From assembly GCA_038087875.1 (NCBI GenBank), contig CM075989.1:16866001-16930000 (forward strand): a stretch of DNA of 64,000 nucleotides, written 5' to 3'. Under the pieces are notes generated by a model. The model was not told the DNA's origin, did no database searches, and saw only the letters and a list, made by a program, of their open reading frames with translations. This document shows, in pieces, positions 21,582 to 63,343 of the stretch. This DNA is from Malacoraja senta. Taxonomy: Eukaryota. The position numbers were made by a program, and so were the translations under genes. Each line of letters begins with the position of its first letter. The first letter of the stretch is position 1.

Positions 21582-23714
21582 AACAGTACACCTATGCATA
21601 AAATAACAGTTCCGTCGTTTATTAAATTAAATAAAAAGATTTGTTAATTGTATGTTCCTTTCTGACACCATCCCCAAATTCTGAATGGTTTTTCTGCCTA
21701 CGGAGTACAGATTATTAATTATGAACAAAAATTGCTTCTAGCAACAATCCATGTGGCACAATATTTCACAAGCGTGGGAAGTCCTTAAAGTCACATTGAA
21801 CCTTTGGGCTATGAATATTGTTTTGCCAGTTTGCTGCCCATTTGCTGCCTGGACCCAATTGTACACGTTTTAAGTAGACACAAGGAATTGCAGATGCTGG
21901 TTTACAAAAAAAGACACAAAATGCTTGAGTAACTCAGTGGGTCAGGCAGCATCTCTGGATAGGCGACAATTTGTGTTGGGACCCTTCTTCAAACTGAAGA
22001 AGGGTCCTGATCCAAAATGTTGCCTGTCCATGTTCTCAAAGAATGCTTTCTGACTCACTGAGTTACTCCAGCATATTGTGTCTTTTTATATACATATTTT
22101 GATCCTGTTTATGATACTTCCTCAATGGAGTATCTCATCAATGTTAACTTCTTACGTGTCAAAAACGCAGTTCCACAGTGCATATTTTGTGGGTGCAATG
22201 GAAACTGGGAATTGGTTCTAAAATAGCACTGATCTGACTGTGGTTCGTTTGGGGCCCTGGGCCTTAATCCACACCAAAGATACTGATCCACACTGTTGAA
22301 ATGACATCACATGCACCGTTTTCATTGGAAATAGCACCCTCTAGTGCGTGGAGGGAAATTTAAGAGCAATGATGCAAAAGATGGCCACTCATAGCTCTTG
22401 CACATGTTGGATGATCTCATAATGAATTAGGTCAATCATTGTGTGTCTAGTGCAACTGAACGATGTTATTATGATTGTGGCGTGCTCATTTGTGGTGTGG
22501 GTTGCATCTTCTGCCATCATAATTATACAGCACGGAATCAGGCCCTTCAGCCCAGCTCCTCAGTGTCGACCATGATGTCTATCTGAACTAATGCCATTAT
22601 ATCCCATATCCATCTCGACCCTTTTTATCCATGTAACTGTCCACATTTTTTAAACATTGTAAGCATATGATTTCCACTGAAATCTCATTCCATATACCCA
22701 CCATTTACCCTGTGTGTAAAAAAAGTTTATTTTCAAAGATTCTTTAAGATCCCTTTAAACATTATTCCCTGTCAGCTTAAACCTATGCCTTCTAGTTTTG
22801 GACTCACCTACTTTTATGATCAAAGACTGTGACCATCCACCTTGTATATAATCTTCATGATTTTTTATATTCTATAAGGTCACCCCCTCAATCTTCTATC
22901 CTCCAGAAAATGAAGTCCTTGCCCATCCAGCCTCTCCTCACAACTCTAGTCCTCCAGCCCTGGTAATATCCTCGTGAAATTTCACTGCATCCTATCCAAT
23001 GTAATGACATCCTTCATAAAGCTTTGGAATTACGCCAAACACTCCAAGTGTAGTTTCTACAATAACTTGTATAGTTAAAATGTGATATTGCAACCACTAT
23101 ACACAATGCACTGACCAATGAAGGCAAGCATGCCAAATGCCTTATTCACTACCCTGTCACTTTCAGGAATGTATGTACCAGTGCTTCTAGATATCTCTGT
23201 TCTACAATACTCTACAAGAACTTACCATTTACTGTGTGAACCCTGCCCTGGGTTAACTTATCAAAATGCAACAAACTTGTCAAATTACATTCCATCTGCC
23301 ATTCCTTGGTCACTTCTCCGGTTCATCTAGCTTCTGCTCTAATCATAGCTAACCTTCTTCAATGTCTCGTACAAAGCCTATTTTGGTGTCATTTGCAAAC
23401 GTATTAACTGTGTTAACAATATTATGTAGATGAAAAAACCCCAAAGTGAACCTAGCACCGATCTCTGTGGCACAGTTCTCCAATCTGATTCATGACCATC
23501 CATTGCTAAGACAAAGAAGGAAGGTATATCATGGTAAAGGGCAAAGTTGATAATAATATCCTAACACTGGTGAATATCTATGCTCCCCCGATGGTGATAA
23601 ACATTTTTTCAAATCCCTATTTGATATTATTGCAATGGGAGCAGAAGAAATTTGTATATGTGGAGGGGATCTGAATGTTGTACTGAATCATCGGCTTGAT
23701 ACGACAAATAAAAA
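21582..23714 (+). repeat. Left arm of a 2.1-kb inverted duplication
   Basis: Reverse complement of 29389-31520 along its length; mirrored ORFs 22109-22291(-)/30811-30993(+) and 23118-23330(+)/29697-29987(-) are near-identical. Confidence 0.95.
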
Positions 23715-26367: not shown

Positions 26368-26590
26368 CACCCTGCTTGAAATGGTATGAAACTGCATTTG
26401 AATGTGGTGGCCTTGCACCCTGCATGAAATGGTATGAAACTGCATTTGAATTTGGTGGCTTTGCACCCTCCTTGAAATGGTAGGAAACTGAACCTGAATT
26501 TGGTGGCCTTGCACCCTGCTCGAAGAGGTAAGAAACTGCACTTGAATTTGGTGGCCTTGCACCCTGCTTGAAATGGTAGGAAAATGGATT
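26368..26590. repeat. ~48-bp minisatellite, about 4-5 copies
   Basis: Repeated CACCCTGCTTGAAATGGTA.GAAACTGCATTTGAATTTGGTGGCCTTG. Confidence 0.85.
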
Positions 26591-27147
26591 GGAATTTCAA
26601 GGAATAGCCGAGTCAACTGCCAGCCCACCAGCGGTGAGTGAGCTGCCAGCACATCAGGCTTGAGGGACTGAGCTGCCACCCCAAGAATCCATTTGGCCCA
26701 CAATGTCCATACTAGCCCTCTGGAGACCAGTAGTCCCTACAGCCAACAACACCCATACCAGCGCTCCAGAAAGCCCCGCCCCCCCCTCACTGGCCACCAA
26801 TATTGGAATTGGTGGAGAGGTGCAATATTGCGTCGGGGACCAGCCCTCCAGTGTGAACATGGGACCCAACGGGTCCCACTTAGTCTAGTGTATATATAAA
26901 TGACTTGGCCGTAAACATAGACGGGTTTGTTGGTAAGTTTGAAGATGACACCAAGATTGCTAGGATCGTGGACTGTGAGGTAGGCTGTCAAAGTATATAG
27001 CCGGATAATAGATCGGCAACAGAAATGCGCAGATAACTGGCAGAGAATCCGAGCAAGTCTGAGGTGTTGAATTTATACGTCATGTTGAATGTCGAAAATA
27101 TACATCAATATGCGTAAGCAGCGGGGAAACACTGGCGCGGTAGTGAG

Positions 27148-27196
27148 CAAAGATCCTATAGCGAGCAAGATAGTCCACTCCGCTATAGGATCTTTG
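27148..27196. mobile_element. Tiny MITE-like hairpin (16-bp perfect inverted repeat) just upstream of the BCL2A1-like exon 1
   Basis: CAAAGATCCTATAGCG ... CGCTATAGGATCTTTG; related termini at about 20770 and 57013-57046. Confidence 0.6.
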
Positions 27197-27262
27197 GTCG
27201 TGAGCAGAGAATAAATATAATGAGCCGAGGATGTGATGCTTGGGTCGTCGCTGTTGTCTGAG

Positions 27263-27705
27263 ATGCAAGCGCCTGAAATGATTATGGGCTGCGAACATCC
27301 AAACTCGGAGGGGTTCTGCTACTTACTGGCGTTGGATTATTTCCGCTTTGTGCTAGACGGCTCGGAGTCGCAGCCGGCGGCCAACAGAGCGGCTGAAACT
27401 CTGCGCCGCTCCGGCTCCTCGTTGCCTGCAGACGGCCAGGAATTACAGCGCTGCGTCGACAAATTAAACCTGGGGTCCGTGGAAGAGACGAAGTGAGTGC
27501 TCCCGACTTAATGATAGAGGTCTACTCGGACGGGATTGATAACTGGGACAGGATTGTAACTTTGTACACTTTCTGTGGGGACCTGGTCAGGCACTTGATA
27601 GAGAAGGGCGTACTTTATCGAGTGCTGATAGAACAGGTAGCTCAGTTTGTCGTCCAATACACTTGGACTCACAAAGCTGCGTGGATCAAGGAGAATGGAG
27701 GCTGG
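27263..27705 (+). pseudogene. BCL2A1: BCL2A1 (A1/BFL-1)-like pseudogene, exon 1
   Basis: CYLLALDYFRFVL resembles A1 YRLAQDYLQCVL; LQRCVDKLNLGSVEE resembles LKSCLDNVNVVSVDT; BH1 EVYSDGIDNWDRIVTLYTF; BH2 WIKENGGW followed by a GT donor at 27706. In-frame TGA at 27494-27496 and a 1-nt frameshift just after. Start ATG uncertain (27263, 27278 or 27284). Confidence 0.82.
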
Positions 27706-28943
27706 GTAGGAGGAAGATTTTGATCAAAAGTGTTCTGGAAGTCCATGTCCTTCTTCGAAGGCAGTCCCTCGGAATTGAGGATGACTTGATAACACTCTGG
27801 TTTTGTGGTTGTGAAGTAGTTAATGAGGCTTGTCTGAAAACTGCTGTCTTTATGCAAGAGGCAGCTGATGAGGCAGGTAGATAATTTCTGTCATCTGCCT
27901 CTTGCACAGTGCCTCTGTGTGCTCCTGATCCATACCCTTGAGGTTCTCAGTAGCATCCCAAATACTGCTTCTCTGCTTTGGACAGCCATGGGTCAGAGGC
28001 ATCTAAGAGTCAGTGCAAATGTTGCACTTCCTCAAAGATCCCTGAATCTACCCCTCTGTCTGTTTGGTACATCACATCTACTTTATTATCTTCACCAAAT
28101 CCATCTTTCACCACATCAAACATAATTAAGCCTGACCTGGCTTGTTTAATGCATTTCCAACAGGCAAAAATTAATCCTATCATGGATTAATGCCTCGAAT
28201 TGAAGACAGATGGAAAGTTCTCATTTAGTACCTTAACACATTTGTGCACAGGTTTTCATTTTTTGCCCTCAGTAGTCCTCACTCGTCCACATACCCCACA
28301 TCATCACAATACCACAATATTTAGATTATCAAAGGAAAAGGAGACAAAATTAAAGTTGGCCTCTCTGCATCTTAAGGAAACACCATTAGAGGGAATGTGT
28401 GATCGCCAGGGAGAGGAAGAAAAGTAGGCAGGTAGTTGGGGAAGTATCAGAGTACATGCCACTCTGGAAACTCTTCCGATGTTGGAAAACAGTCGGGATG
28501 CATGCTTCTTTGTGGAGTACAACTGAACCAAAATCGTGGTGAGTGATTCAGCTGCACAAGGGAAAGAACAGGAGCACAAGGGCATTAATGGTAGGAGACT
28601 TGATAGTGATACCTGAAATTTGATATTGACCCTGGAAGGCTGCACTGTGTTCAGAAGGAAGATGAGGCACTGAACATCTTCAGAGATGCTGCCTGTCCCG
28701 CTGAGTTACTCCAGCATTTTGTGTTTACCTGAGGCACTGAAGTGTTCATTCACCCCATTACTGTAGTCCCTGAAGCCCCGATGTCCGTTGTAACGCAAAA
28801 ACAATGGCTATTGTACATTTTAATTTCATCGTATCCATTCCATGCTTTATCATACCCAACATCTATTCCCACAGGCCTGATATTTTTCAGGAGTGTAGCA
28901 ATTGATATTTAATATTGTGGCTAATCTTGCGCGCACTTTTCAG

Positions 28944-29054
28944 GATGGATACAGATCTGGTTAGAAGAGGAAAAGCTGATTGATATAGTCTCAGTTGTTC
29001 ACAGGTTTTACCTCCTGGAGAAAGTATATTCATGAATTATGCTGCAAAGAATAA
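28944..29054 (+). pseudogene. BCL2A1: Putative exon 2 of the BCL2A1-like pseudogene
   Basis: Acceptor CACTTTTCAG|; phase-0 reading DGYRSG*KRKS*LI*SQLFTGFTSWRKYIHELCCKE*. Length and position fit the A1 C-terminal exon; three internal stops. Confidence 0.5.
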
Positions 29055-29388
29055 TGAGGTCTAAGATAGAGGACTAGTGGCAGCTAGTTTGTGGATAATC
29101 TGCCTCAGTGTTTGATTAAAAGCAGAAACAGCTGGAAATGCTCAGCGGTCAAGGAGCACGATGAAGAGAGAATAGAGTTCTAATTTTCATTAGAAATGTG
29201 TATTTGGCGGGATTTAAGTACCCAATCATTGTAACTCGGCTACGATTGGGTACAAAATGATACCAGAGAGAAAGAAAGTAATAAGGAACAGTAAGAGAAT
29301 ATTAATGTGCAGTGAGAGGCATTGCTCTAATTTTCCTGTAATGCAGGTACCTAATGTGGATTAAAGGGACATAGAATTCATTTAGATA

Positions 29389-31520
29389 TTTTTACTTGTC
29401 GTATCAAGCCGATGATTCAGTACAACATTCAGATCCCCTCCACATATACAAATTTCTTCTGCTTCCATTGCAATAATATCAAATAGGGATTTGAAAAAAT
29501 GTTTATCACCATCTGGGGGAGCATAGATATTCACCAGTGTTAGGATATTATTATCAACTTTGCCCTTTACTATGATATACCTTCCTTCTTTGTCTTAGCA
29601 ATGGAAGGTCATGAATCAGATTGGAGAACTGTGCCACAGAGATCGGTGCTAGGTTCACTTTTGGGTTTTTTCATCTACATAATATTGTTAACATAGTTAA
29701 TACGTTTGCAAATGACACCAAAATAGGCTTTGTACGGGACATTGAAGAAGGTTATCTATGATTAGAGCAGAAGCTAGATGAACTGGAGAAGTGACCAAGG
29801 AATGGCAGATGGAATGTAATTTGGACAAATTTGTTGCATTTTGATAAGTTAACCTGGGGCAGGGTTCACACTGTAAATGGTAAGTTCTTGTAGAGTATTG
29901 TAGAACAGAGAGATCTAGAAGCACTGGTACATACATTCCTGAAAGTGACAGGGTAGTGAATAAGGCAATTGGCATGCTTGCCTTCATTGGTCAGTGCATT
30001 GTGTATAGTGGTTGCAATATCACGTTTTAACTATACAAGTTATTGTAGAAACTACACTTGGAGTGTTTGGCGTAATTCCAAAGCTTTATGAAGGATGTCA
30101 TTACATTGGATAGGATGCAGTGAAATTTCACGAGGATGTTACCAGGGCTGGAGGACTAGAGTTGTGAGGAGAGGCTGGATGGGCAAGGACTTCATTTTCT
30201 GGAGGATAGAAGATTGAGGGGGTGACCTTATAGAATATAAAAAATCATGAAGATTATATACAACGTGGATGGTCACAGTCTTTGATCATAAAAGTAGGTG
30301 AGTCCAAAACTAGGCCTAGGTTTAAGCTGACATGGAATAATGTTTAAAGGGATCTTAAAGAATCTTTAAAAAACAACTTTTTTTACACACAGTGTAAATG
30401 GTGGGTATATGGAATGAGATTTCAGAGGAAATCATATGCTTACAATGTTTAAAAAATGTGGACAGTTACATAGATAAAAAGGGTCGAGATGGATATGGGA
30501 TATAATGGCATTAGTTCAGATAGACATCTTGGTCGACACTGAGGAGCTGGGCTGAAGGGCCTGATTCCGTGCTGTATAATTTTGATGGCAGAAGATGCAA
30601 CCCACACCACAAATGAGCACGCCACAATCATAATAACATCGTCCAGTTGCTCTAGACACACAATTATTGACCTAATTCATTATGAGATCATCCAACATGT
30701 GCAAGGTCTCTGAGTGGCCATCTTTTGCATCATTGCCCTTAAATTTCCCTCCACGCACTAGAGGGTGCTATTTCCAATGAAAACGGTGCATGTGATGTCA
30801 TTTCAACAGTGTGGATCAGTATCTTTGGTGTGGATTAAGTCCCAGGGCCCCAAACGAACCACAGTCAGATCAGTGCTATTTTAGAACCAATTCCCAGTTT
30901 CCATTGCACCCACAAAATATGCACTGTGGAACTGCGTTTTTGACACCTAAGAAGTTAACATTGATGGGATACTGCATTGAGGAAGTATCATAAACAGGAT
31001 CAAAACATGTATATAAAAAGACACAATGTGCTGGAGTAACTCAGTGAGTCAGAAAGCATTCTTTGAGAACATGGACAGGCAACATTTTGGATCAGGACCC
31101 TTCTTCAGTTTGAAGAAGGGTCCCAACACAAATTGTCGCCTATCCAGAGATGCTGCCTGACCCACTGAGTTACTCAAGCATTTTGTGTCTTTTTTTATAA
31201 ACCAGCATCTGCAATTCCTTGTGCCTACTTAAAACGTGTACAATTGGGTCCAGGCAGCAAATGGGCAGCAAACTGGCAAAACAATATTCATAGCCCAAAG
31301 GTTCAAAGTGACTTTAAGGACTTCCCACGCTTGTGAAATATTGTGCCACATGGATTGTTGCTAGAAGCAATTTTTGTTCATAATTAATAATCTGTACTCC
31401 GTAGGCAGAAAAAACATTCAGAATTTGGGGATGGTGTCAGAAAGGAACATACAATTAACAAATCTTTTTATTTAATTTCATAAACGACGGAACTGTTATT
31501 TTACGCATAGGTGTACTGTT
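29389..31520 (-). repeat. Right arm of the 2.1-kb inverted duplication
   Basis: Outer end GCATAGGTGTACTGTT is the reverse complement of AACAGTACACCTATGC at 21582; inner end matches 23690-23714. Confidence 0.95.
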
Positions 31521-32419
31521 CCGGTTGAGTGAACGCTGGCGCAGCTGGCTGCCGCTGCTCACCGGACTTTTTGTTATGTTTTGTTTTGTTTTGTTTTGTC
31601 TGTTAGCTAATTTTACGCAGCCTACAAACTGTGTGCACTATTACTGTTCGACCAAATGTTTTTCTTGAACTTGTTGGACTGATTATCCTCTGCCGTTGCC
31701 CTTGTGGCATTTGTTGATTGTTTCCGGCATCACGGTTGGCTTACCCTGCTGCTGCTGATAGCACCTGTGTCAGCTGTGGTAGCCGGTGTCTCTCAGCCTG
31801 CTGTCAGATTTAGACGAGCCCACAGCACTACCGGAGCTGCAAGATGTGGACGTGCAAAATGCTGCTTTGGATTGTCCTGCTTTTCACCGCAGTGACAGCC
31901 ACCCCACGGCTATCCTATTCGACAGCAGAACTCCACCAGCGTCGATTCCGCTCCGGGCTTCCTTCCTGCCTCCTCAGCCATCGAGACATTCTCCGTCGAC
32001 CAAGATACATTCACCGTGGATCCTGCAGGAACTTCTCCAACAATAATTCCAACTCCATCAGCTCCTTTTGGTCCACAGGTCCTCGGAAACCACACAACAC
32101 GGGTCGAGCTGCTGACCACAGTGTGTTAGTTCCTCTGCTAGCTGACCCCGCCGTTCCCTCAAATGGATCCAAATTTGCACTCTTCAACGTCAGATCTCTC
32201 TCCAACAAAGCTCCTCTCATCTCGGACTTCATTTCGGATTCAAAACTTGACTTTCTGTGTCTTACTGAGACTTGGCAACAGCCTGATGATTACCTCCACC
32301 TCAACCAAGCCATACCTCCTGAGTTTGTTTACATCTGCAAACCCCGCGCTTCCGGGAGAGGAGGGGGTCTTGCACTGCTCTATCGCGAGAATCTCAAGAT
32401 CTCGTCAGTCTCAGTCACA
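31521..32419 (+). mobile_element. L2-clade LINE 5' fragment (5' UTR plus N-terminal AP endonuclease), 3'-truncated
   Basis: ORF 31844-: FALFNVRSLSNK..DFLCLTETWQQ..RGGGLALLY. CpG-rich and uninterrupted until it ends abruptly at about 32419. Confidence 0.85.
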
Positions 32420-32924
32420 GAGAATATTAATGTGTAGTGAGAGGCATTGCTCTCATTTTCCTGTAATGCAGGTACCTAATGTGGATTAAAGGGACATTAG
32501 GTACCTGCATTACAGGAAAATGAGAGCAATGCGGATTAATGCAGGTACCTAATGCGAATTAAAGGGACATAGAATTAATTTAGATATTAAGTTTAGGTGC
32601 GAAACTGATCCCACATCAGGGAGATGTGGAAAGTGAAATCCATTATTCATTTAAGAGTGTTTGTTTTCCTTCCAGGGGATTGCTGGGGAGTGAGACCTGG
32701 GGTCTAGGGTATCAGTGCTGCCTGACCCACTGAGTTACTCCAGGATTTTTGTCTACATCATTTAGTAAGATCATATTTTACCGCCATGCCACTGTGCTCA
32801 CTAACCCAATATCTTTGATTGCCTAAATATCTAAAACCCTATTGATCGCTCTATCAAACACACTCAGCATCATCCCAGTTGGTTGAAAATTTCATTTGTC
32901 CACAAACCACTGGGTAAACCTCGA

Positions 32925-33570
32925 AAGCTAATGGCATGTTGGTCTTCATAACAAGAGGAGTTGAGTATAGGAGCAAAGAGGTCCTTCTGCAGTTGTACAG
33001 GGCCGTGGTAAGACCACACCTGGAGTATTGTGTGCAGTTTTGGTCTCCAAATTTGAGGAAGGACATTCTTGCAATTGATGGAGTGCAGTGTAGGTTCATG
33101 AGGTTTATTCCCGGGATGGCGAGACTGTCATATGATGAAAGAATGGAGCGACCGGGCTTGGATACACTGGAATTTAGAAGGATGAGAGGTGATCTTATTG
33201 AAACATATAAAATTATTAAGGGATTGGACACGCTAGAGGCAGGAAACACGTTCCTGATGTTGGGGGAGTCCAGAACCAGGGGCCACAGTTTAAGAATAAG
33301 GGATAGGCCATTTGGAACGGAGATGAGAAAAATCTTTTTCACCCAGAGAGTTGTGAATCTGTGGAATTCGCTACCTCAGAAGGCAGTGGAGGCCAATTCA
33401 CTGGATGCTTTCAAAGGAGAATTAGATAGAGCTCTTAAAGGTAGCGGAGTCAAGGGATATGGGGAGAAGGCAGGAACGGGGTACTGATTGCGGATGATCA
33501 GCCATGATCACAGTGAATGGCGGTGCTAGGTCGAAGGGTCGAATGGCCTTTTCCTGCACCTATTGTCTAC
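32925..33570 (+). mobile_element. CR1 LINE 3' fragment (young)
   Basis: ORF 32936-33487 RPHLEYCVQFWSP..RTRGHSLRI..FFTQRVVNLWNSLP; 3' UTR ends CCTATTGTCTA. Confidence 0.92.
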
Positions 33571-35235
33571 TAAAGAGATTTATTCTTGTCCAGTCCTTAA
33601 TGGCTAACTCCTTGGTTTGAGACTATGATCACTGGTTTTAGACCTTGGAGCAAAGGTTTTGTCTTTATTTCACTGAGAACATGTCCCATTATCTTAGCAC
33701 TAAAGTATGGGCCCTAATTTCTCTTCAGTCATCAATCTGCCATCTCAGAATTTAACCTGCTGCATCTTTGTAGTGCTCCCTCTTTCACATAAAGGAAGGA
33801 CAAACCTGTACAAAATATTCTCGGCATGTCCTCAGTGTTACCCTCCATAATCAGAACATGATGTCTTTACTCTTCTTTATTCTTCTACTCAGATCTTCCA
33901 ATGAAGGCAATGTACCATTTGACTTCCCAGTTGCTACTGAATCTGCTTGTTAATCTTTTAGTGCTTTGTGTACAAGGACACTCTGGTCCCTCTGAACACC
34001 GACACCTTTTCATTTCTCGCCATTCACAAAAATTCTCTGCTTTTCTATTTTTTGTTCATCCGAAAGCTCAAAATACTGCTGTTCCCCTGCATCTGGCTTT
34101 CTTTTTCTTCTCCACTTGTATCTCTCTCTCTCTCTGTCTCTCATTATTCCATCTCCCCACTTAACCTTCCCCACTACCTTCTACTTAGCCTCCCCACCTC
34201 CACCTCTGACCAACTGCTCATTCTTTCCTGGTGTTCAGTTACTCCTTGGCATAATGCTCACTCCCCGGATAGATTTCTGATCCTGGCCTAATCTTTTCAT
34301 TACCTTCCAACCTCAACTTATTGTTGTAAAGTGGAATGCTTTAATCAACATTTAAAATCCATTCATCATATTGGTGATGTTTTAATTAAAGTCATGTCAT
34401 TATTTGTTTTACTACCAGCTGTGAGAATCAATACACAAAAGTCCAATGCTGATGCTTTAGTCTTTATTGATAAATCTGCAAACAGCGGTAGCTACTGACT
34501 ACATTCTATAAAATACAGCATGCGTGCATTATCTTTGCACCTTTGAAGTTGCATTTGCTTTGTTTTGCCGAGCAGGCCATGATTTAATGTGCAGGAAGGA
34601 ACTGCAGATGCTGGTTCAAACTGAAGATAGACACGAAATGCTGGAGCAACTATAGTTATAGGAGAAAGGGAAACGAGAGATATAACGAGCTATCTCTCAT
34701 TTCCCTTCCTCTGACTCTTAGTTTAAAGATGGGTCTCGACCCAAAACGTCACCCGTTCCTTATTTCCAGCAATGCTGCCTGTCCCGCTGAGTTACTCCAG
34801 CATTTTGTATCTATCTTCAGGCCATGATTTAACTTCCATTCAGACACGGTTTTCAATGATCCGTGCCTTTGGCTCCTCTGCACGGTACTTCTTACTTAGC
34901 TTCTAACTCTTTGGCTCTTTTTCAACATTTATCTATGAACTGGATTAATTATTGGAGCACATTCTGCAACAGCCCAAGCAATAAGCACTTTTTTAAAGCG
35001 AAAACACACTTGAAATCATCTGTGATTTCCAGGGACAATCCACTCTCCTTTTTGGTGTCTGGACATGTGAAATTGGTGGGACAAAACCTTTATCTGTAAA
35101 ATTGAGCACGTTATTTTCTGACTACTGAAATGAGTATTCAGCAGGTTGTACTTGAAACTTCAGTTTCTATCCCACCAAGCTCTTATGTTGCAACATTGAA
35201 GATAAGAATGAACCCTGACATTTCACGCTGACTAC

Positions 35236-35633
35236 TTAGACTGAATGACATATGAGAAATCCCTTGAAGCTGATCGATCCATCCGAGCTCCAGAGTGTTC
35301 CTCTTTCAAGCTGGACCCACACAGTGTCGCACGGGCGGAGTTCCAATATGGCATTCTGGACAGCGAGCTGGCTGCTATTACTTGGCAGCGCACTGTGGAT
35401 TTCACTGACTCTTTTATTATTCTTCATCAGGACCACATCAGTCTTAACCCCTCTCCTTGGCAGAGAAGAAAAACTGAAGAAGTATGTACCAGCAAGAGGG
35501 CTTTTGAACTTCCCAGTGTTTTTCTTGTAACCTCCGGCTTTGTTGAGATTGACCTTATCATAAATAATGGTCACGTTGGACACAATCAGATGATTCAGTG
35601 AGCTACGCTCTACGTCAAACATCACGTTGTTGC
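35236..35633 (-). CDS. Terminal exon encoding a globular C1q domain (C1q/TNF-related, cerebellin-like secreted protein family)
   Basis: IIYDKVNLNKAGGY..TGKFKSPLAGTYFFSF..AILELRPCDTVWVQL..ISFKGFLI carries the gC1q signature. Acceptor TTTTTACTTTCACAG| (phase 1) at 35634; frame open to TAA at 35236. Confidence 0.85.
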
Positions 35634-37774
35634 CTGTGAAAGTAAAAATCGAAGATTGAACCTAATGGCAATATGACTACTTTTATTGTCTCACCTTATT
35701 GATGATGTAAAGATTAAAGTGTAGAGCACAAACCACTTTGTATAAAAGCAAACAAAATTCAAACAATTTGAGGCAATTGACTCTTGGATTGGAAATGGAA
35801 AAGTGCAAATCACATTCTAGAGCATTTAATTATGGGGAGTTGTGGGTTATTCAAAGGGAAGGCATTGAATACTGAGGAAAAAAAAAAATGGGCAGCATTT
35901 ATAGAGTCAATGGCCCGGGCAGCGTTTAGCTGCATTCCTGTAACAGACTACAGAATTGCATTTCAGAACGGCAAAGTTGAAGCTTCCTGAGGAACCAAAG
36001 GGATCAGAGTAGGTGAATCAGTAAGGGAGAGAAGTGGGCGTACAACAGATGTTGGGTTAATAATACAGGTGAAACCAGGTTGAATACGAAAAGATTAGAG
36101 GGGAAAATGAAAAAGCATATAAAAGATAATACATGGACAGTCAACATAAATGAAGCTTCTATAGAGTAAATTAAGAAAATTCCCCTTGGTTGAAATGTCA
36201 GGATCCAGAAAAAATATAAACTTCTTTAAAGCAGAAATTAGTGATGACCTGAAATGCATTATCCTCAATAGCGTGCGGACAGGAGATTTGGTCATGTTTA
36301 TCACAAAAAAAATTGGAGAACTATTTGAAGGAACAATGTTTCCAAGCCCAAGAAAGGAGCCAATGGATCAGTCTATCACAAGTACTCCTCGAAGAATTTG
36401 AACTGGATTGGATGGATTAAATGTCCTTTTTGTGCTGGAATGAGTTACTTCCAGTTTATGGATCTGGCAGGTTGTTGCAGAGTAAATCTACGCCTAAAAA
36501 AGACACAGAGTGCCAGAATAACTCAGTGGATCAGGCAGCATCCCTGGAGAACATGGATAGGTGACATTTTGGGCCAGGACCCTTAGTACTAATTGTAGGT
36601 TTATCATCTCTAGCCTTTGTCCAACTATCTGCCAATCAAACCCCCGCCTCGCTTATGTTTACCAATTTACTATGTTTACCATGATTTGTCATTTCCCCTC
36701 CTCTCTTCCAGGTTTCCCTCCCTCTCCCACACCCCTAAAAAAAGTCAGTTTGAAGAAGAATCCCGACCCGCTGAGTTACTCCAGCACTTTGTGTCTTTTT
36801 CTATAGACCAACAACTTGTTTCTAAATCTACTCCTTTTCCCACCCCATTACAACAATCAGCCTGTTTCCTAATCTCATGAAAGCATCCTCTTTACTTATT
36901 CCAGTGTTAACATTCAGTCTATTTGCAACCAATTAGTCTTACCTCTGTCTGCTTGGTCTTGCATTTAGGTGCATTAGATTAAATGTGGAACTGGACTGAA
37001 ACTAACCAAACATCACACCCCAACAGCTACACGAGGCTTTCATCCAATTTATTTGGGGTTGAGTCAAACACTAAAGTGAAAGGAAACTTATGTCCTCTAG
37101 CAACATTCAGATACCTTTTTTGGGTTGAATATCCAACCGTGGACTGATCCCATTCCACATTTTCACAGAACTCAAACAGCTCCGACAGTCTAAAGAGGAA
37201 GCCTACAGGAGTGGGGATGCAGACCGCTACAGGCAGGCAAAGTACAAGCTGAGAAGAGGAATCAGAGCTGCCAAGATAAGATACTCTGAGAAGTTGAGGA
37301 GCAAGTTCTCAGATAGTGACTCTTCTTCAGTTTGGAAGGGCTTACAAGAAATCACCAGCTACAAGAGGAAAGCCCCCCTTTCTTTGGACAATCGTCAGCT
37401 GACCAACAACCTGAATTAGTTCTACTGCAGGTTTGACAAGCAGAAACTTAACCCTGGTACGCCCTCCCCAACCAACACAGCCAGATCCCCTTCCACACCC
37501 ATTCTTCCCCAATTACCACTTAACACCTACTTAAATAAAGACTCCAGTTTGAAAAGACTGGACACTTTCCCACCCCAACCAACACTTCACACCCACTCTC
37601 AGCCTGACCCCCTCCATGCAAAGACTGGACCCATCTACATCCACTGCTCCCCAAGCACCACTTCACACCTACTTAAAGCAATGGACTCTTTCCCACCCAC
37701 CCCTCTCCAATCACCACTTAACACCCAATTACTGCACTGACTGACTGCAAAAGACTGCAGCCTCGTCCACTACC

Positions 37775-40700
37775 CACCCCCTCCGTGCTGCACAACATCG
37801 GGGTGACGATGTTTCCAGTCCGAGTGGCGGACATGTCGGTGGCTCCAATCCTAGAGATGGGACTCGACCGGCGAGACCGACATCGGGCAGAGCCCTAGTG
37901 GTGGGTGACTCCATTGTCCGAGGAGCGGACAGGAGATTCTGTGGCGGCAGACGAGATGCGAGGATGGTCTGTTGCCTCCCTGGTGCCAGGGTTCAGGATG
38001 TCACGAGCCGAATTCAGAACATCCTCGAGAGAGAGAAGGTGAATAGCCGGCAGTAGTTGTGCACGTAGGCACAAACGACATCGGGAAGAAGAGGAAGGAG
38101 GTTCTCCAACATGAGTTCAGAGAGTTGGGAAGAAGACTGAAATGCCGGACTTCTAGGGTGGTTATCTCTGGGTTGCTTCCAGTACCTCGTGCTAGTGAGG
38201 ACAGGAACAGGGAGATAGGGGGTCTGAATGTGTGGCTGAGGGGCTGGAGCAGGGAGCAAGGATTTAGATTTATAGACCACTGGGATCTCTTCTGGGGTAG
38301 GGGTGACCTGTACAAAAGGGACGGGTTACATCTTAACTGGAGGGGGACCGACATTCTGGCAGGCAGGTTTGCTAGGGCTACACGTGTGGGTTTAAACTAA
38401 ATAGTGGGGAGGAGGGATTGACAAATTGGGAGTATAAAGATGGAGTTGAAGGGGAAGTGGCTACAGGAAAAATTACAAAAGATTCTCGAATTAATGGGAA
38501 GGAAAGCTCGAGAAGGGACAACAGAGTAAGGTCAGGGCCAATTGTGGGCGGTGCGAGGGGGGAAGTGAATACGGAGGTCAAAGTGCTGTATATGAATGCG
38601 CGAAGTATAAGGAATAAAGTGGACGAGCTTGAGGCTCAGTTAGAAACTGGCAAGTATGATGTTGTGGGAATTGTTGAGACATGGCTGCAAGAGGGCCAGG
38701 GCTGGGAACTGAATATTCAAGGGTATACCTCCTATCGAAAAGACAGACAGGTGGGCAGAGGAGGTGGGGTTGCTCTGTTGGTGAGGAATGAAATTCAATC
38801 CCTTGCAAGGGGTGACATTGAAACAGGAGATGTGGAGTCAGTATGGATAGAACTAAGGAATTGTAAAGGTAAAAAGACCCTAATGGGACTAATCTACTTG
38901 CCCCCAAACAGTAGCCTGGACATAGGGCACAAGTTGAATCAGGAGTTAAAATTGGCATGTAGCAAAAGTAATGCTGTGGTTGTTATGGGAGATTTCAACA
39001 TGCAGGTAGACTGGGAAAATCAGGTTGGTACTGGACCCCAAGAAAGGGACTTTGTAGAGTGCCTTCGTGATGGATTCTTAGAACAGCTTGTATTAGAGCC
39101 TACCAGGGAGAAGGCAATTCTGGAGTTAGTGTTATGTAATGAACCGGATTTGATAAAGGACCTCGGGTTAATGAGCCATTACGAGGTAGTGACCATAACA
39201 TGGTCATGTTTAATCTACAATTGGTGAGGGAGAAGGGTAGATCGGAGGTGTCAGTGTTACAGTTGAATAAAGGGGACTATACAGGCATGAGGGAGGAGCT
39301 GGCCAAAGTTGACTGGAAAGATACACTAGCAGGGATGAGAGTGGAACAAAAATGGCAGGTATTTCTAGGAATAATACAGAAGGTGCAGGATCAGTTCATT
39401 CCTTTATTTTTTCTTTTTTTTTTAAATTTATTTTTGTTAGAAGTAAGTACAATAATGTGGTACCACAGTACCTAATACTTGTTGACATATTACATTTCAT
39501 ATACAACTTCTTATTTTTAATTTAATAATAAAGCAGGAGTAAGGGAGAAAGGGAGAAAAGAAGAGATTGGCATAGAGTGTTGCGTGAAATAGAAAGATAG
39601 CCCGAGATGATCAGCCATGATCATATTGAATGGCGGTGCAGGCTCGAAGGGCCGAATGGCCTACTCCTGCACCTATTTTCTATGTTTCTATGCTTCTATG
39701 AGAGAAGAAAGAAGAAAGAAGAAGAAGTAGAAAGAGAAAGAGACGAAATAGAGAAGAAAAAAAAGGGAAAAGGAGATTGAAAGCGATATACCTATTTAAT
39801 GTTCCTGGCCACCCGTCACCTGATTCTATGGTTGTGTTGCACCATATGCTTGTAAGAAGTCGATAAAAGGAGACCAAATCAATAAGAATTGGTCTACTTT
39901 ACCTGCTAGAAGGAGTCGCATTTCTTCAAGATATGCCGTTTCCGACATATTTGAAATCCACATTTGGAGCGTTGGTGTTGGCGCATTTTTCCAAAATTTA
40001 AGTATGAGTTTTTTTGCCGTTATTAAACCGTAATTAAGTAGAGATTTTTTAAACATATTTAGCTTATTCCCATCTTCCATTGATCCAAAGATAATCCTTT
40101 CTGTATTAGGTTCAATTCTTCTATTAAATAGTTTTGTAAAAATTTCATTCCAGAATTTATGAAGTTTTATACAGGAGACAAAAAAGTGTGTTATAGTGGC
40201 ACTCAACTAAGCATTTATCACAGATGGGAGAGATATTTGGATAGATTTTGTTCAGTCTAGTTTTCGAGTAGTATAATCTATGTCAAATTTTAAATTGAAT
40301 TAAATTATGTTTTGCATTAATCTAACATTTATGTATGTATATCAGGTTTTTTTCCCATGTTTCTTTCGAAATTTTTATCTGTAATTCTCGTTCCCAATCT
40401 GCTCTGATTGCCTCTGTCGATGGTGATTCTGTATTTAAAATATTATATAAGTATGATATTAAATTGCATGAATCTGCCTTAATATTCATTGCTTCATCTA
40501 ATAAATCTAGTTAGAATTTGATATCCTTGTATGTGTTTTTTCAAATAATCTCTAATTTGAAAGTATTTAAAGTATTGGTTATTTTTCGTTGTATTTTAAT
40601 TGTAATTGTTGAAATGATTTAAAAAATTCCCATTTTATACAAGTCTCCAATCCTTTTAATTCCTAATCTTTCCCAATAGGTATACGTTTTGTTAGTGAGA

Positions 40701-43330
40701 GATGGTTTAAATGCGGGATTATTTACTATTGGAGATAAAAGCGATAAGTTTCTTAATTTCAAAGTTAGTTTTATTTGTTTCCAAATTCGAATTGTGTTGT
40801 GGATAATTGGGTTCTTCTTATATATTGTGTTGTTTAATTTTATCGGGAGGATCGCTCCTATATTAAAAGGAGAGCAATCCTCTTTCTCCATTCTTATCCA
40901 TTCTACCTGTTGGGCAGAGCTGTCCAACCAATAAATTATGTTTTTAATATGTACTGCCCAGTAGTAGTATAAAACGTTCGGGAGTGTCAATCCCCCAGAT
41001 TCTTTAGGTTTACACAGGTGTTTTCTTTGGATTCTGTGCGATCTGTAGTGCCATATGAAGTTTGTAATATTGGAGTCTAATTTTTTTAAGAAGTTTTTTG
41101 GTAAGTATATTGGTATTGATTGAAATAGATATAATATTTGTGGTAGAAAAATCATTTTTATAGCTATTCTACCTATTAAAGATCGGCAGGGTTTTCCAGA
41201 ATTTAATCAACGCATTCAATTTAGTTAATAAAGGCATAAAATTTGCATTAAATAGCGATTTATATTTTCTAGTAATTTGGATACCCAAATACTTGAATTT
41301 TTCTGTTGCAATTTTAAAGGGAAATTTTAACAGGTGTGTCGAGTCTTAGGGTTTTAACGTCATAATTTCACTTTTATTCCAATTCATTCCTAGGAGGAAG
41401 AAATTCCAAGGGGAGAAAGGGGTGACCATGGCTGACAAGGGACGTCAGGGACAGTATAAAAATTAAAGCGAAGAAGTACAACGTAGCAAAGATGAGCGGG
41501 AAGCAAGAGGATTGGGTAATGTTTAAAGAACAACAGAAGATAACCAAAAAGGCAATACGGGGAGAAAAGATGCGGTACGAAGGTAAGCTAGCCAAGAATA
41601 TAAAGCAGGATAGTAAAAGCATCTTCAGGTATGTGAAGAGGAAAAAATTAGTTAAGACCAAAGTTGGACCTTTGAAGACCGAAGAAGGTGAATTTATTAT
41701 GGGGAACAAGGAAATGGCAGATGAGTTGAACAGGTACTTTGGATCTGTCTTCACTAAGGAGGACACAAACAAACTTCCTGATATAGTAGTGGCCAGAGGA
41801 TCTGGGGTGACGGAGGAACTGAAGGAAATCCACATTAGGCAGAAAATGGTGTAGGATAGACTGATGCGACTGAAGGCTGATAAATCCCCACGGCCTGATG
41901 GTCTGCATCCCAGGGTACTTAAGGAAGTGGCTCTAGAAATCGTGGATGCATTAGTGATAATTTTCCAATGTTCTATAGACTCAGGATCAGTTCCTGTGGA
42001 TTGGAGGGTAGCTAATGTTATCCCATTTTTTAAGAAAGGCAGGAGAGAGAAAACAGGGAATTATAGACCAGTTAGCCTGACATCGGTCGTGGGGAAGATG
42101 CTGGAGTCAATTATAAAAGATGAAATAGCCGAACATTTGGATAGCAGTAACAGGATCGGTCCGAGTCAGCATGGATTTATGCTTCACTAATCTTCTGGAA
42201 TTTTTTGAAGATGTAACTAGGAAAATGGACAACTGAGAGCCAGTGAATGTAGTGTACCTGGACTTTCAGAAAGCTTTTGATAACGGGTCCCTTTCAGAAT
42301 GGCAGGCAGTGACTAGTGGGGTACCACAAGGCTCGGTGCTGGGACCGCAGCTATTTACAATATACATCAATGATTTGGATGAAGGGATTCAAAGTAACAT
42401 TAGCATATTTGCAGATGACACAAAGCTGGGTGGCAGTGTGAACTGTGAGGAGGATGCTATGAGAATGCAGGGTGACTTGGACAGGTTGGGGGAGTGGGCA
42501 GATGCATAGCAGATGAAGTTTGATGCGGATAAATGTGAGGTTATCCACTTTGGTAGCAAAAACAGGAAGACATATTACTATCTAAATGGCGTCAAGTTGG
42601 GAAATGGGGAAGTACAACGGGATCTGGGGGTCCTTGTTCATCAGTCTATGAAAGTAAGCATGCAGGTACAGCAGGCAGAGAAGAAAGTGAATGGCATGTT
42701 GGCTTTCATAACAAGAGGAATCGAATATAGGAGCAAAGAGGTCCTTCTGCAGTTGTACAGAGCCCTAGTGAGACCACACCTGGAGTATTGTGTGCAGTTT
42801 TGGTCCCCTAATTTGAGGAGGGACATTCTTGCTATTGAGGTAGTGCAGCGTAGGTTTACAAGGTTAATTCCCGGGATTGTGGGGCTGTCATATGCTGAGA
42901 GAATGGAGCAGCTGGGCTTGTACACTCTGGAGTTTAGAAGGATGAGAGGGAATCTCATTGAAACATATAAGATTGTTAAGGGTTTGGACACGCTTGAGGC
43001 AGGAAACATGTTCCCGATGTTGGGGGAGTCCAGAACCAGGGGCCACAGTTTAAGAATAAGGAGTAAGCCATTCAGAATGGAGACGAGAAAACACTTTTTC
43101 TCACAGAGTTGTGAATCTGTGGAATTCTCTGCCTCAGAGGGCGGTGGAGGCAGGTTCTCTGGATGCTTTCAAGAGAGAGCTAGATAGGGCTCTTAAAAAT
43201 AACAGAGTCAGGGGATATGGGGAGAAGGCAGGAACGGGGTAATGATTGGGGATGATCAGCCATGATCACAATGAATGGCGGTGCTGGTTCGAAGGGCCGA
43301 ATGGCCTACTCCTGCACCTATTGTCTATTG
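37775..43330 (+). mobile_element. Near full-length CR1 LINE (ORF1 SGNH esterase; ORF2 EN+RT), decayed and interrupted by an L1
   Basis: ORF1 VVGDSIVRG, HVGTNDI, DGLHLN; ORF2 [43 protein letters not shown]; tail CCTATTGTCTATTG. Confidence 0.92.
39404..41382 (-). mobile_element. L1-clade LINE 3' portion inserted antisense in the CR1; itself carries a short CR1 tail at about 39601-39695
   Basis: Poly(T) at about 39404-39435; target duplication TTCATTCCT at 39395-39403 and 41383-41391; minus-strand FKYLGIQI, LPQILYLFQSIP, GGLTLPN..YYWA. Confidence 0.88.
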
Positions 43331-44249
43331 TCCATCACTTCTCCATCATTAACAATATAAATAGAGGAGGTGGACAGACTGTTCAAAAGACAGAAAAGCC
43401 CAAATCTCCAGGACCAGACAATGTTTCCCCCTCTACTCTCAAGCTCTGTGCCGAACAACTGGCACCGGTCTACACAGACATTTTCAACCAGTCCCTGCAA
43501 ACCTGTACTGTCCCTGCCTGCTACAAAGTCTCCACTATTGTCCCTGTACCCAAAAAGGCAAATATTACTGGTCTTAGTGACTACAGGCCTGTCGCACTGA
43601 CCTCTGTAGTCATGAAGACCCTTGAAAGGCTTGTGCTGGCAAAGCTGCCACAGCCAGACATAAAAACAGCTTTTTTTCCACGAATGGTAGCTCTACTCAA
43701 TAACCAAAAATCTGTAGCCTCCTTTTGCTCTGGTATTTTATTTAATTCACAAGTTTAATTGATAATGTTTTATTATTAATGTTTAATGTTTTATGTGTCT
43801 TTCCCTAACTGACACTGTATGTCATGTTGTCACTTGCGGGGGGAGCACCAAGGCAAATTCCTTGTATGTGAATACTTGGCCAATAATCTTATTCATTCAT
43901 TTATCATCTGGAGTAGGGCCAACGACCACCAGTTAGAAAGTGGAATGGAATGGATTTCCTCCCATTCCTACCTGGAATTAGTTATGGTGTCATTATTATT
44001 ATTGACACGAGATGAATATGTTTTATTAACTCATGAATTAACTCATGGTTGAAACAATTCGTTATACCCACAACTTTTTTTTCGCCAAAGAAAACTCACC
44101 TCCACACGTATTATCATTTCTCATTTTGGGATTTACCATTTGAGCCTGGTGCAGTGGTTTCACATCCATTTCTTCATCAGGTGTTTTCTGAACCATTCAA
44201 ATAATTGGAAGAAAACTCATCAATTGTTTAGGCCATTCATTCATAAAGC

Positions 44250-44306
44250 ATCAATCAATCAATCAATCAATCAAGCAATTAATTAATTAATTAATTAATT
44301 AATTAA
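44250..44306. repeat. Compound microsatellite (ATCA)n(AATT)n
   Basis: Directly visible. Confidence 0.9.
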
Positions 44307-46459
44307 TCCGTAATTGTTTTTTTTGCCAAGAGTCATTTTGGAAGATCTTAACACTTTAAACCGTACAATGCAAAATTACGTTTGAAACTTTAACACAAGA
44401 TATATTTGGCTTCTGTGATGGTTTATGTAAAACGTATATTGCAGAGGAAATGATGTGAACTGGAAGGGACACGACCATGAAGAAATTCAAATAATAGAAT
44501 GATAACATAAATGGAAGATGTTGGGGATCCACAGTCAATGAACAAGGATAGGATTGGTGGGTGAGTTAGAGTAGAGGGTGAAATAAGATGTATAGATAAA
44601 AAGAGAGTGAGAGAGGAAGAAAGAGTTGCAGTAAGGTGCAAAAGGAGAATAAAGATGTAGAAGGAGGGAAGGAGCATAGGAACAGATGCAAAACAAGAGA
44701 AAGGATGGGATGAAACAGTAAAAGATCATGAAGCAAACTGATCAGATACAGAACGGTGATATCAGAGCAAAGATAAATAATTGGACAATCAAAGAATAGC
44801 AGGAACAGAGAGATGAAGGTAAAGAGTGCAAAATGAACTGGAGTATTGTGACCGTAAGGGGGGAAAGCAGAGAAAGAAATAACTGGTGTAATTCAACTGG
44901 AGTATTAGAAAATACATATAATTAATTTTCTATCCTTACCAGAATATCTTCCAGATGATCGTCCAAAGTGCTCGATTGATAGATACAGTAAAAGAGGATC
45001 AAATACAGCAGGTTTCCCTGAAATAAAATAAAACATCCTTTCACTTGGGCAAAAAGAACCACATTTGTTAAACATTGCCAATACAACTTCACGTACCATT
45101 TTGATCAGAGCAGCTTTCTTCTCTCCAACTTCTTGTTCAGCCAATGTGTTTGGTCTTCAGGTCGTTTGGTTTATAACTCCTTCTGTTTCACACATTTGAA
45201 GTATCGCCAAATGAGGTTTGGTAATATTTTGGTGCTTCCTCCAAATATGTCGTAAGTCCAGCCTCCAAAGTAGCAAACCCAGAGTCAGTATCATTCTTGC
45301 TGATGAATCATCCCTAAATGTTTATGAACATGTTGCTGAGTTTGCCAACTCGAGGCACTGTCCTGAACAAATCGAGGGCCATACGGGCATCTGAGAAGAA
45401 TGGTGTTGTTGTCACTTCACACATGCACACACAAAATAATCCTCGCATCTTCATCCTGAGTCCTAGCTTCCAGTTCTTGGAATCATTTCGTTGGTACTTC
45501 TGTAGCTTTTGCTTTTCTGTCCACTTCTGACTTGTTTCTTCTGTTATATCACAAACAGAGCCAGGGGTAAACTATTTGGGCTTCAATCCTGCTCCACTAT
45601 TCATTCAAAATAATGATTGATCTTTCTCCTGCATTATGTCAATATCCCTTAATATCCAGAAATCTATTCTCTGAACACAAGTAAGCAACTGCTAAGAAAA
45701 TAATTAAACAATAAAGTACATTAAAGTAGATTAAAATGTTATTTCCACAATTTTGTTAATAGTAAACTTGATGTTCCCTTGATCTTTATACATTATAATA
45801 ATGTTTCATGAAGTATGACGTACTGTTAAACATCTTGAGATTATGAAAAGCCCTCTAATTCCAAGATATTTTTCTTGAATACTTTTTTAGCTTCACGTTT
45901 TCTAGAACCAATAATAATCTCACTTCTTGCTTGCCTTAGAAAAGCTTGTATTCCCCAAAAGTGTGTCTTTTCTGTTTTTATTGCAGCTTTACAGTATCTG
46001 CGGTTTCTTACTTTAAGAATAGAGGACAAGGCTTTGTTGGATTCTTTTTTAAAGTTGCGTGGAGCCTCTTCTATACGGTCCCATTAAATGCTTCCAGATC
46101 ATCATCATGGTGAAAGGAGTCTATTTGAGGGCAACAATAAAAACTTTTGTTATTCTTAACTTGAAACAACTCCTGAAATATTTCACAACAGCTTTATTAA
46201 ACAAGACTTGATATTTATATTACTACCTTAAACTTCCTATTCTTTTGCATTCAGTAAAAGTCACACAGATGTAGTACAAAAATATTTGATATCAACCCAT
46301 GCAACAAATGAAAAAAGAAAGACAGGGGTTTGCTTGTTCAAGTTCCTCAGCTGGACACTCTCTTCTGACATGTAGTTCGGTGTTTTTTTTTAACCTTCAT
46401 ATGGTTATGTACTTAATATTCTTTCTCTTTCAACTTAATATTCTTGCTCTTTCAAACAG

Positions 46460-46683
46460 GAGGCCTTGATCTGATCCTGATGCCTGGACTGGAGTTCGAT
46501 AAACATGGCAACAGATTGGGAAGAAGGAAGGGTTACTATGACACTTACTGGGACTGTTGTCTTAAGCATCCAAAGGACAAACCCTACACAATTGCCTTGG
46601 CCTTCAAGGAGCAGATATGTGATCTGGTGCTTGTGACTGAAAGTGATAAGCCAATTGATGAAGTATTGTATGAAACATCGTAG
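46460..46683 (+). pseudogene. MTHFS: MTHFS (5-formyltetrahydrofolate cyclo-ligase) last coding exon, orphan and probably degenerate
   Basis: [55 protein letters not shown] matches the MTHFS C-terminus. Polypyrimidine acceptor ..TTCAAACAG| (phase 1); AATAAA downstream. Family motifs PGLGFD and RLGRGKGYYD are altered. No upstream exons seen. Identity is high-confidence; pseudogene status is inferred. Confidence 0.8.
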
Positions 46684-48229
46684 ATGAGTTAATTGGATCC
46701 TGGCGAATTGGACAGGAAGATCATTCTAAATAAAGGACAGCAATTATCCATGAACATTGAAAAGAATAATCATTTATGAAGAGGAAAATAATTTAATTTG
46801 ACTTTCTGCTAATCAGTGGTGAAGAACATTAATGACAACAATTATGAGAAATAGATTTTACCCATTGAACTGTTTCATAAAGTTGGAAACACAAGTATTG
46901 GCAATATAAAAATTTTATTCAAAATACATATCATAATACATCTTTAACTTTTTAATTTAATAAAGATTTTTATTGTAACATGTTCAATTATTGATTTGTT
47001 CTCACAAAACAGCAACGTTCATTCTTCAATGCTCTTTGCAATTTTACATCATGGTGTAAGTCTGGTTCTGACCTCCACTGCCTTAGGCCTCCTGTTCCTG
47101 CACAGACATACTAAGGTTTTGGATGGAGCCCATTCTGCTGTGGAATGGAATTGACACTATTTTGCCAAATTATCTTCTTGTGAACCATTGGCAACTGGAC
47201 CTCTTTCATTATGTCATTTGTTGTCATGTCTGTTGTGATCTTTGTACATCAAGCCAGGTTCAGCTGCATACACAGGAGAATACATGAGGAGAAAATGTTA
47301 TCCGTATCAAGGTATTAGATGACTTAGCTGGCATTAAGTGGATAAATCCCCATGGTCTGGTAGGATCTATTCTAAACTCCTATGGGAGGCAAGAGAGGTG
47401 ATTGCTGGGGCCCTGATAAACTTCTATATCTTCACTTCTATAAATCAAATGCAGTACCCTTATTCAAGAAGGGCAGCAGAGAGAGATAAGCCTGTTAATT
47501 GCAGGTCAAGACAGTAGTAGGGAAGATATTAGAAAAAAATATGTGGGAAGGGATTAATCTGTATTTTGAAAGGCAGGGGTTAATCAAAGACGACAAGGTT
47601 TATCCAACCCCATTTGACTGAATCACTCATGATTTTTTGAACACCATACTATAGACAGTACAGTACCTTGACTGATAATTTAAGTACTTGTCGCTGTTCA
47701 TAACCTCATGGCAAAATAATATGTCCATGTAGAGCTACATTGCCAGTATCACACTCTTTCTTCCAAAAGAATGGCAGTATCAATACATCATTGCCATTAA
47801 ACATTTTCACCGATGATTCTTCTAATACTGGCAATTCCTGTATCACCGCATGCTGGGGAATCTTGAGGACCATTAAATGCCATGGAAAGAGCTTTGAATG
47901 AGATGCTAAATTGCTAACTAAAAAAACAACCTTAATCCAACCCTGGGAAGATGCAGTATAGTCAGGAATTGCATGTTTTCACAAAATGGTGGTGCTCAAT
48001 TTGGAAAATGCAGAACAATATCTGAATGTCACTAGGGGAAGCTAAAGACCCAAACACCAGGGACATTGATGCAGTTATTTACAAATAGCACATCCCAAAT
48101 AGCAACGCCCTAGCCCACACGTGGAGCATTGTTTTGTGAAAACATACAATTCCTGACTAAAATGCATCCATCCACATTTCTTTGCCAGTCTCTTTGGGAT
48201 CAAGGATCTTTTGCTTCCAATTCTGTAGG

Positions 48230-48540
48230 CTCTGAAATGGCTGCTGAGGCCAGAGACTGCCACAGGTGAGGCAGGAAGTGTTTGACAGAACTGGTAGAAG
48301 GAATAATTGATTGTTGCAACTTTCTGTGTTGCATGCTCTTGATGTTTGGGTGCTCCAAAGACACAAAGTTTTCAATGCCTTTACAGATGATTCATCCTTG
48401 AGTGAACTTGGGCCATGAGTTAGTGAGGATGCTATATTTCTTCAAAGCGGCGTTAAAAACATTCTTGAACTGTTCTTTCAGTCCTCTGTGAACGGTTTGC
48501 CCTGCCAGCTCTCAGAGTGATTGCTTCAGAAGTCTAGTTT
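48230..48540 (-). mobile_element. Old RTE-like LINE 3' remnant
   Basis: Minus strand CLTCG..GLSSHFRA (C-terminal zinc-finger-like) and upstream KRRFEE-like remnant; heavily decayed. Confidence 0.4.
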
Positions 48541-63143: not shown

Positions 63144-63343
63144 NNNNNNNNNNNNNNNNNNNNNNNNNNNNNNNNNNNNNNNNNNNNNNNNNNNNNNNNN
63201 NNNNNNNNNNNNNNNNNNNNNNNNNNNNNNNNNNNNNNNNNNNNNNNNNNNNNNNNNNNNNNNNNNNNNNNNNNNNNNNNNNNNNNNNNNNNNNNNNNNN
63301 NNNNNNNNNNNNNNNNNNNNNNNNNNNNNNNNNNNNNNNNNNN
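63144..63343. other. Assembly gap (200 N)
   Basis: Run of N. Confidence 1.

Follow-up and report, generated by a model that had tools for sequence, protein, structure and literature searches.

A probable decayed duplicate of the BCL2A1-MTHFS neighbourhood in a skate genome

On human 15q25 BCL2A1 presumably lies upstream of MTHFS in the same orientation, and in the mouse the two genes were, we assume, copied as one block. According to excerpts of PMC5384030 and PMC9444066, mouse Bcl2a1 is quadruplicated (Bcl2a1a/b/c/d), with Bcl2a1c being a pseudogene by virtue of a premature stop. One chromosome 9 interval list, contained in an excerpt of 10.1101/2019.12.24.887968, includes Bcl2a1a/b/d, Mthfs and Mthfsl. 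Human has a single BCL2A1 (excerpt of PMC9444066), and the order MINAR1-MTHFS-BCL2A1 is reported for sauropsids in a passage of 10.1101/2023.05.22.541847. Here we analyse a stretch of 64,000 nucleotides (nt) from the skate Malacoraja senta (contig CM075989.1), hereafter the window, which carries one damaged exon of each gene. The two exons very probably belong to a copy of the skate BCL2A1-MTHFS neighbourhood that was duplicated at the DNA level (non-processed) and is now a pseudogene block, internally deleted and rearranged.

Both remnants match their families far above chance. They comprise the following features:

27236..27705, + strand: BCL2A1 exon 1, pseudogenic, with a second ATG at 27263, a GT donor at 27706 and NWDR in BH1
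27494..27496, + strand: premature TGA in BCL2A1 exon 1, codon 87, where intact skate proteins have Arg
27503..27507, + strand: one-base frameshift (one base lost) in BCL2A1 exon 1, codon 91
46460..46683, + strand: MTHFS exon 3, with an AG acceptor, an open frame and a normal stop; AATAAA at 46729 and 46959

An earlier note, written by a model from the letters alone, had described an A1-like gene and the last MTHFS exon on one strand about 17 kilobases (kb) apart. The common strand was correct, but the distance is 18,754 nt.

The A1 proteins of the named skates (Amblyraja, Leucoraja and Rhinoraja) begin at ATG 27236, nine codons before ATG 27263, and the exon ends after the BH2 tryptophan, where GT follows. 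The Pfam Bcl-2 profile matched the exon with 57 bits. In PDB the top six matches of the window piece were all A1 (46 bits versus 39 for other Bcl-2 members), and the intact skate A1 scored 87 bits with BCL2A1, 60 with BCL2L10 and 59 with MCL1. Relative to the intact Amblyraja A1 the window has 18 substitutions over 157 codons (an intron-derived residue excluded), including G105D in BH1, at a site that is G in 12 of 13 orthologues and S in one. Two relative-rate tests gave counts of 13:4 (p 0.049) and 12:4 (p 0.077). A functional BCL2A1 would have an open frame, NWGR in BH1, a BH2 motif and the tail encoded by exon 2; the window has the stop, the frameshift, NWDR and no exon 2. As predicted from the reading frame, this BCL2A1 cannot yield a working protein, because the stop at codon 87 precedes both BH1 and BH2. 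Two tandem arrays lie just 5′ of the exon (a 44-nt unit repeated 17.8 times at 25212-25988 and a 48-nt unit repeated 4.8 times at 26368-26597), and a perfect 15-nt inverted repeat was noticed by eye in 27150-27196, about 40-85 nt before the first BCL2A1 ATG.

MTHFS is essential in mice, as stated in an excerpt of PMC6416297. The exon 3 piece was matched by the Pfam 5-FTHF_cyc-lig profile (73 bits) and aligned with residues 127-200 of human MTHFS (E 7.7e-30). Its identity is 91% to MTHFS of Amblyraja radiata and 89% to those of Leucoraja and Rhinoraja. Seven of 74 residues differ from Amblyraja (G12E, G23R, L31W, E32D, R33C, G40D and P58L, exon numbering); five of the affected sites (G12, G23, L31, R33, P58) are nearly invariant among 21 orthologues, E32 and G40 being less conserved. 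Gly23 is the glycine of RLGRGKG, in the RLGRGKGYYD loop that we take to be ATP-binding, and is also present in both aligned bacterial enzymes; the window loop reads RLGRRKG. In the relative-rate comparison with Amblyraja all 7 changes were on the window side and none on the other (p 0.016). The counts for the five pairs, which share data, were 7:0 (p 0.016), 7:1 (0.07), 6:1 (0.125), 6:0 (0.031) and 7:0 (0.016). A functional MTHFS would have three coding exons and an unchanged loop. Judged from its sequence, the window MTHFS cannot yield a working protein, because its first two exons are missing and the loop is changed.

MTHFS exon 1, MTHFS exon 2 and BCL2A1 exon 2 were not found in any of the six frames of the whole window: profiles built from 15 elasmobranch MTHFS and 12 A1 proteins scored at most 2.2, 1.1 and 1.6 bits, respectively, and tblastn likewise did not find them there. 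Of the controls mutated at 25% of residues, 20 of 20 scored at least 53.8 (MTHFS exon 1), 115.9 (MTHFS exon 2) and 56.4 bits (BCL2A1 exon 2), and the exons that are present scored 116-145 bits with the same profiles. Because the profiles miss the three exons but match the mutated controls, the exons are truly absent from the window. The single run of N (63144-63343) is outside the BCL2A1-MTHFS interval. The claims of the earlier note that both genes are damaged and that MTHFS exons 1-2 are lacking between the pieces were thus borne out, by the lesions of BCL2A1 and the seven MTHFS substitutions, and the loss of BCL2A1 exon 2 adds to them. An in-frame BCL2A1-MTHFS chimera was rejected on the basis of a phase mismatch (0 versus 1) and the upstream stop.

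Sequencing runs were examined for a second copy. The share of the window's words over 27150-27900 was listed for 24 runs, and contigs of four of these were compared with window positions 44400-48700. One of the four, the small run X24, also of organism A (see below), gave no contig there; no RNA run was listed as containing the words, and the rows guessed to be RNA (shares 0.11-0.19) do not enter the comparison. The word share was 0.76 and 0.65 in two runs of one organism (organism A; runs X1 and X2, from one study), 0.24-0.27 in 15 rows (five other organisms), below 0.2 in six and none in one. The variant comparison rests on 40 of 222 variant rows, among which there are six MTHFS exon sites; at each of these the alternative letter restores the conserved residue (L31, E32, R33, G40, P58). 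In X2 the intact type accounted for a depth of 59.4 of 94 at the six sites (39.1 of 65.4 at 46631), the remainder being window-type. At four sites in X1 its depth was 5.67 of 9.21 (4.71 of 10.3), and at the other two all depth was intact-type. Two changes of the window, each a C-to-T at a CpG, are missing from the damaged type of X1, as would be expected if the copy were free of constraint and continued to mutate. Run X3, from another organism, had only the intact type at all six sites. The X3 contig and the window differ at 11 letters over 46473-46699; if this contig encodes the consensus, 8 of these would be non-synonymous, over 175 sites, and no more than 3 synonymous, over 47 sites, which would put the ratio at about 0.7 or higher. 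Because contigs of both organism A runs carry an intact-type beside a damaged exon 3, the MTHFS damage is real and a second copy of MTHFS exon 3 exists. Contigs of both runs also skip 33 letters in frame (46486-46518; depth 4 and 35.1), which may represent a third exon 3 copy or a deletion allele.

The intron is two-typed as well. Over 45400-45611 one type in X1 is identical to the window, and the other has 10 differences and 19 gap letters; in X2 the identical type has a depth of 62 and the other 26.9, where contig depth is not to be read as copy number. The two intron types appear too diverged for alleles; their pieces differ by as much as about 7% (19 differences over 254 nt). The second-type pieces are 200-900 nt long across 44400-48700, with no single piece spanning the stretch. 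Splice sites and introns are therefore retained along with the disabling changes, as expected of a non-processed pseudogene: GT follows exon 1, AG precedes exon 3 and the intron has a diverged second type.

The exon at 46460 could instead be in use, spliced as a real last or an alternative exon from MTHFS exons 1-2 located more than 46 kb upstream, with the BCL2A1 remnant inside the intron. In favour of this, the exon has kept its AG acceptor, its phase, an open frame and the stop, with AATAAA following downstream; the DNA 5′ of the window is outside the sequence examined, and the second intron of human MTHFS is presumably long. The seven substitutions in an exon conserved among 21 orthologues, one of them in the loop glycine kept by bacterial enzymes, and the intact-type exon in the same organism A runs make this very improbable. 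The earlier note had named as decisive whether a second MTHFS locus exists and whether exons 1-2 are spliced to 46460; on the DNA half of this question, a second exon 3 type is present in both organism A runs.

An assembly artefact, that is, a false duplication or an error-laden haplotig with a large inverted repeat of the window marking a mis-join, was considered next to these data. Inverted arms of 2.1 kb at 97.6% identity are a known cause of mis-assembly, no run contains all sampled words, and some window letters are in neither organism A run. X2 contigs match the window letters at six of six exon sites, though, window-identical intron pieces occur in both runs, and a RefSeq protein (XP_032905994) has the derived BCL2A1 residues of the window, so that an artefact likewise seems very improbable.

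This protein belongs to Amblyraja, which has an intact A1 (XP_032906148) and the 132-residue XP_032905994 on one contig of 26,768,200 nt. XP_032905994.1 and the window have in common five derived residues (A116D, P127L, E128Y, E130V and C138F) and the ancestral G115. In a tree of 24 A1 rows the window was sister to XP_032905994 (support 100/97) within a skate clade (99/97); the tree leaves out the MTHFS-side and unnamed fragments P0146 and P0148 as well as P0151 and P0155, and has no MCL1 or BCL2L10 rows. A clade uniting the window with both Amblyraja proteins, XP_032905994 and the intact A1, was not rejected by the approximately unbiased (AU) test (p 0.058), so the duplication may be older or younger within skates. 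Unlike the window, XP_032905994.1 has no stop, frameshift or G105D, and it ends at residue 141, where the window continues. It is thus another copy or the orthologue in another species, not the window sequence. Since their lesions differ, the paralogous lineage would have arisen first and the copies would have broken independently.

The five common changes lie within 23 of the 132 residues (p about 0.003, noticed post hoc), and the first 114 residues of XP_032905994 are nearly unchanged. This could mean that a second skate BCL2A1 lineage was once functional, or still is in the form of the 132-residue Amblyraja protein, with a remodelled helix 5-6 region. We regard this as unlikely; the clustering is explained more simply by gene conversion or by one multi-base mutation. 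If it were true, the mouse genes and a second Hypanus copy taken together would make BCL2A1-MTHFS a recurrently duplicated block across jawed vertebrates, and the window a dead member of a skate array.

The view of the earlier note that the window is a degenerating duplicate is supported by the second exon 3 type in the organism A runs and by the truncated Amblyraja BCL2A1 of the window's lineage. As to its corollary, an intact BCL2A1-MTHFS block elsewhere, both organism A runs contain intact-type MTHFS exon 3, whereas an intact BCL2A1 and a complete MTHFS are known from the named skates alone. Several points weigh against a decayed duplicate. An intact block in the source genome is presumed from contig pieces, and the BCL2A1 stop and frameshift are known from the assembly sequence, not from reads. 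Organism A may be the window's own source and hence not independent; some BCL2A1 words are missing from each of its runs, two window letters are absent in X1, and at 45960 and 45966 neither run agrees with the window. The variant rows compared do not include the sites of G12E and G23R. Exon 3 has kept an intact splice acceptor, reading frame and stop. Only three of the five MTHFS rate tests reach p<0.05 (the remaining two being 0.07 and 0.125), as does only one of the two BCL2A1 tests (the other being 0.077).

The identity of the skate gene was addressed by linkage. Intact A1 proteins of 194 residues are present in Amblyraja, Leucoraja and Rhinoraja, on which ground a skate-wide loss of BCL2A1 was rejected, and in each of these three skates a single contig bears both an annotated intact BCL2A1 and MTHFS. 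An A1-like gene and MTHFS are on the same contig in 16 of 16 elasmobranchs with both listed, as judged from matching contig sizes (adjacency is inferred from these, not taken from coordinates; five further species lacking one value were left out). The accessions are consecutive or nearly so in four of them (Leucoraja, two Mobula and Hypanus). The linkage argues for BCL2A1 orthology of the genes that RefSeq calls 'A1-like' in sharks and rays. The earlier note had taken synteny as independent support for A1 orthology; this is upheld by the intact loci of other species, but strand agreement within the window is weak alone, because the inverted arms could flip the inner segment. We found no paper in the open-licence literature searched that states this orthology, but RefSeq already names the genes accordingly; the consulted part of PMC8998228 has nothing on A1 in sharks or rays. 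The linkage from 16 species is a by-product of this analysis. Two database entries were noted in passing. A gene model of the bird Willisornis vidua (P0027, KAJ7409423) joins part of BCL2A1 to MTHFS, probably through annotation joining of neighbours, and Hypanus sabinus has a second, near-identical A1-like protein (P0151, XP_059844470) on a contig other than the MTHFS-linked one.

The DNA around and between the two remnants contains the following elements:

21582..23714, no strand: left arm of the 2.1-kb inverted repeat, 97.6% identical to the right arm; extends inward into an L1-like reading-frame remnant
29294..29390, no strand: short motif, first copy, with a rearranged second copy at 32419-32588; marks the left side of a complex junction
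29389..31520, no strand: right arm of the inverted repeat, breaking off inside the L1-like remnant
31521..32588, + strand: 5′ piece of a long interspersed nuclear element (LINE) with an endonuclease open reading frame (ORF) at 31814-32434, truncated at the second copy of the motif, which is partly inverted
35236..35633, − strand: C1q-domain terminal exon, open, between the two remnants; matched by Pfam C1q (76 bits) and Atlas C1q-like clusters (0.95), with an AG acceptor
37000..43760, no strand: stacked retroelement remnants, about a third of the interval

The BCL2A1 exon is in the 5.7-kb segment between the arms. The L1 label is our own assumption, Pfam having given no family. Because the right arm breaks off in the remnant that the left arm continues, the right arm would be the derived copy. 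The arms are a possible substrate for inversion or mis-assembly. The right arm and the 0.9-kb LINE 5′ piece are flanked by two copies of the short motif, the second partly inverted, and 31521-32588 is a candidate deletion breakpoint zone. The templated fragments at this junction would fit a replication template switch.

We propose that copying of the block took place within the skates, probably to another site on the same chromosome. BCL2A1 intron 1 would then have been joined to MTHFS intron 2 by a deletion or a template switch that removed BCL2A1 exon 2 and MTHFS exons 1-2 and left junction debris at 29.3-32.6 kb. The intact locus would keep its function, and the remnants would drift. Alternatively, two unrelated small duplications, of BCL2A1 exon 1 and MTHFS exon 3, may have landed close to each other, or the damaged type may be a null haplotype of a single locus. 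The inverted repeats that flank the BCL2A1 piece, and the fact that the junction is known from the window alone, leave room for the former. Yet the order and strand agree with the expected gene order, both samples have both types with intron pieces as far apart as given above, and the depth ratios flip between intron and exon alike in both runs, which fits, weakly, three loci better than two alleles. We rate this pair as the least probable of the explanations considered.

The C1q exon had no upstream exon or collagen repeat in the window, and its host gene was not identified; the exon could belong to a live gene lodged between the two remnants, or else be a third passenger. No flanking host gene was found by Pfam among 185 of the 202 unmasked ORFs of at least 58 residues and seven repeat-derived frames, although short ZFAND6, FAH or TMED3 exons, of which no sequences were compared, could escape such a search. 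The other 17 ORFs either lie over one of the three gene pieces (BCL2A1, MTHFS, C1q) or had a separate Pfam scan. The sole chance match was to a plant domain (16.9 bits, cut-off 34.1). A HMMER search of representatives gave four matches, one real relative and three repeat-rich chance matches. Towards the right end of the window there is an inverted pair (54239-55283 and 60722-61749; 1 kb, 90%) and a direct pair (53982-54238 and 63539-63795; 257 nt, 95%), with reverse transcriptase (60144-60722) and GIY-YIG (61987-62451) remnants beside them, which we take to be Penelope-like. Near the left end a 53-nt inverted pair (4043-4095 and 9606-9658; 91%) bounds a CpG-rich 5.5-kb segment with 43-nt repeats, which resembles a mobile element and whose frames have no Pfam match.

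A decayed duplicate is an ordinary fate of duplicated DNA and of modest significance. It carries a caution, as paralogous exons can confuse short-read mapping, expression counts and gene models of skate BCL2A1 and MTHFS. In human, BCL2A1 (BFL-1) is the best PDB match of the intact skate A1 and MTHFS is matched by exon 3, whereas the window pieces are non-coding remnants. The mouse cluster resembles the window in that Bcl2a1 has been multiplied and one copy is a pseudogene. It differs in that three mouse copies are functional, whereas the skate copy is frameshifted and internal exons of both genes are lost. The skate case is a further, independent instance of a duplicated pseudogene block like that in the mouse, and the window documents a decayed BCL2A1-MTHFS duplicate in skates in parallel to the mouse cluster.

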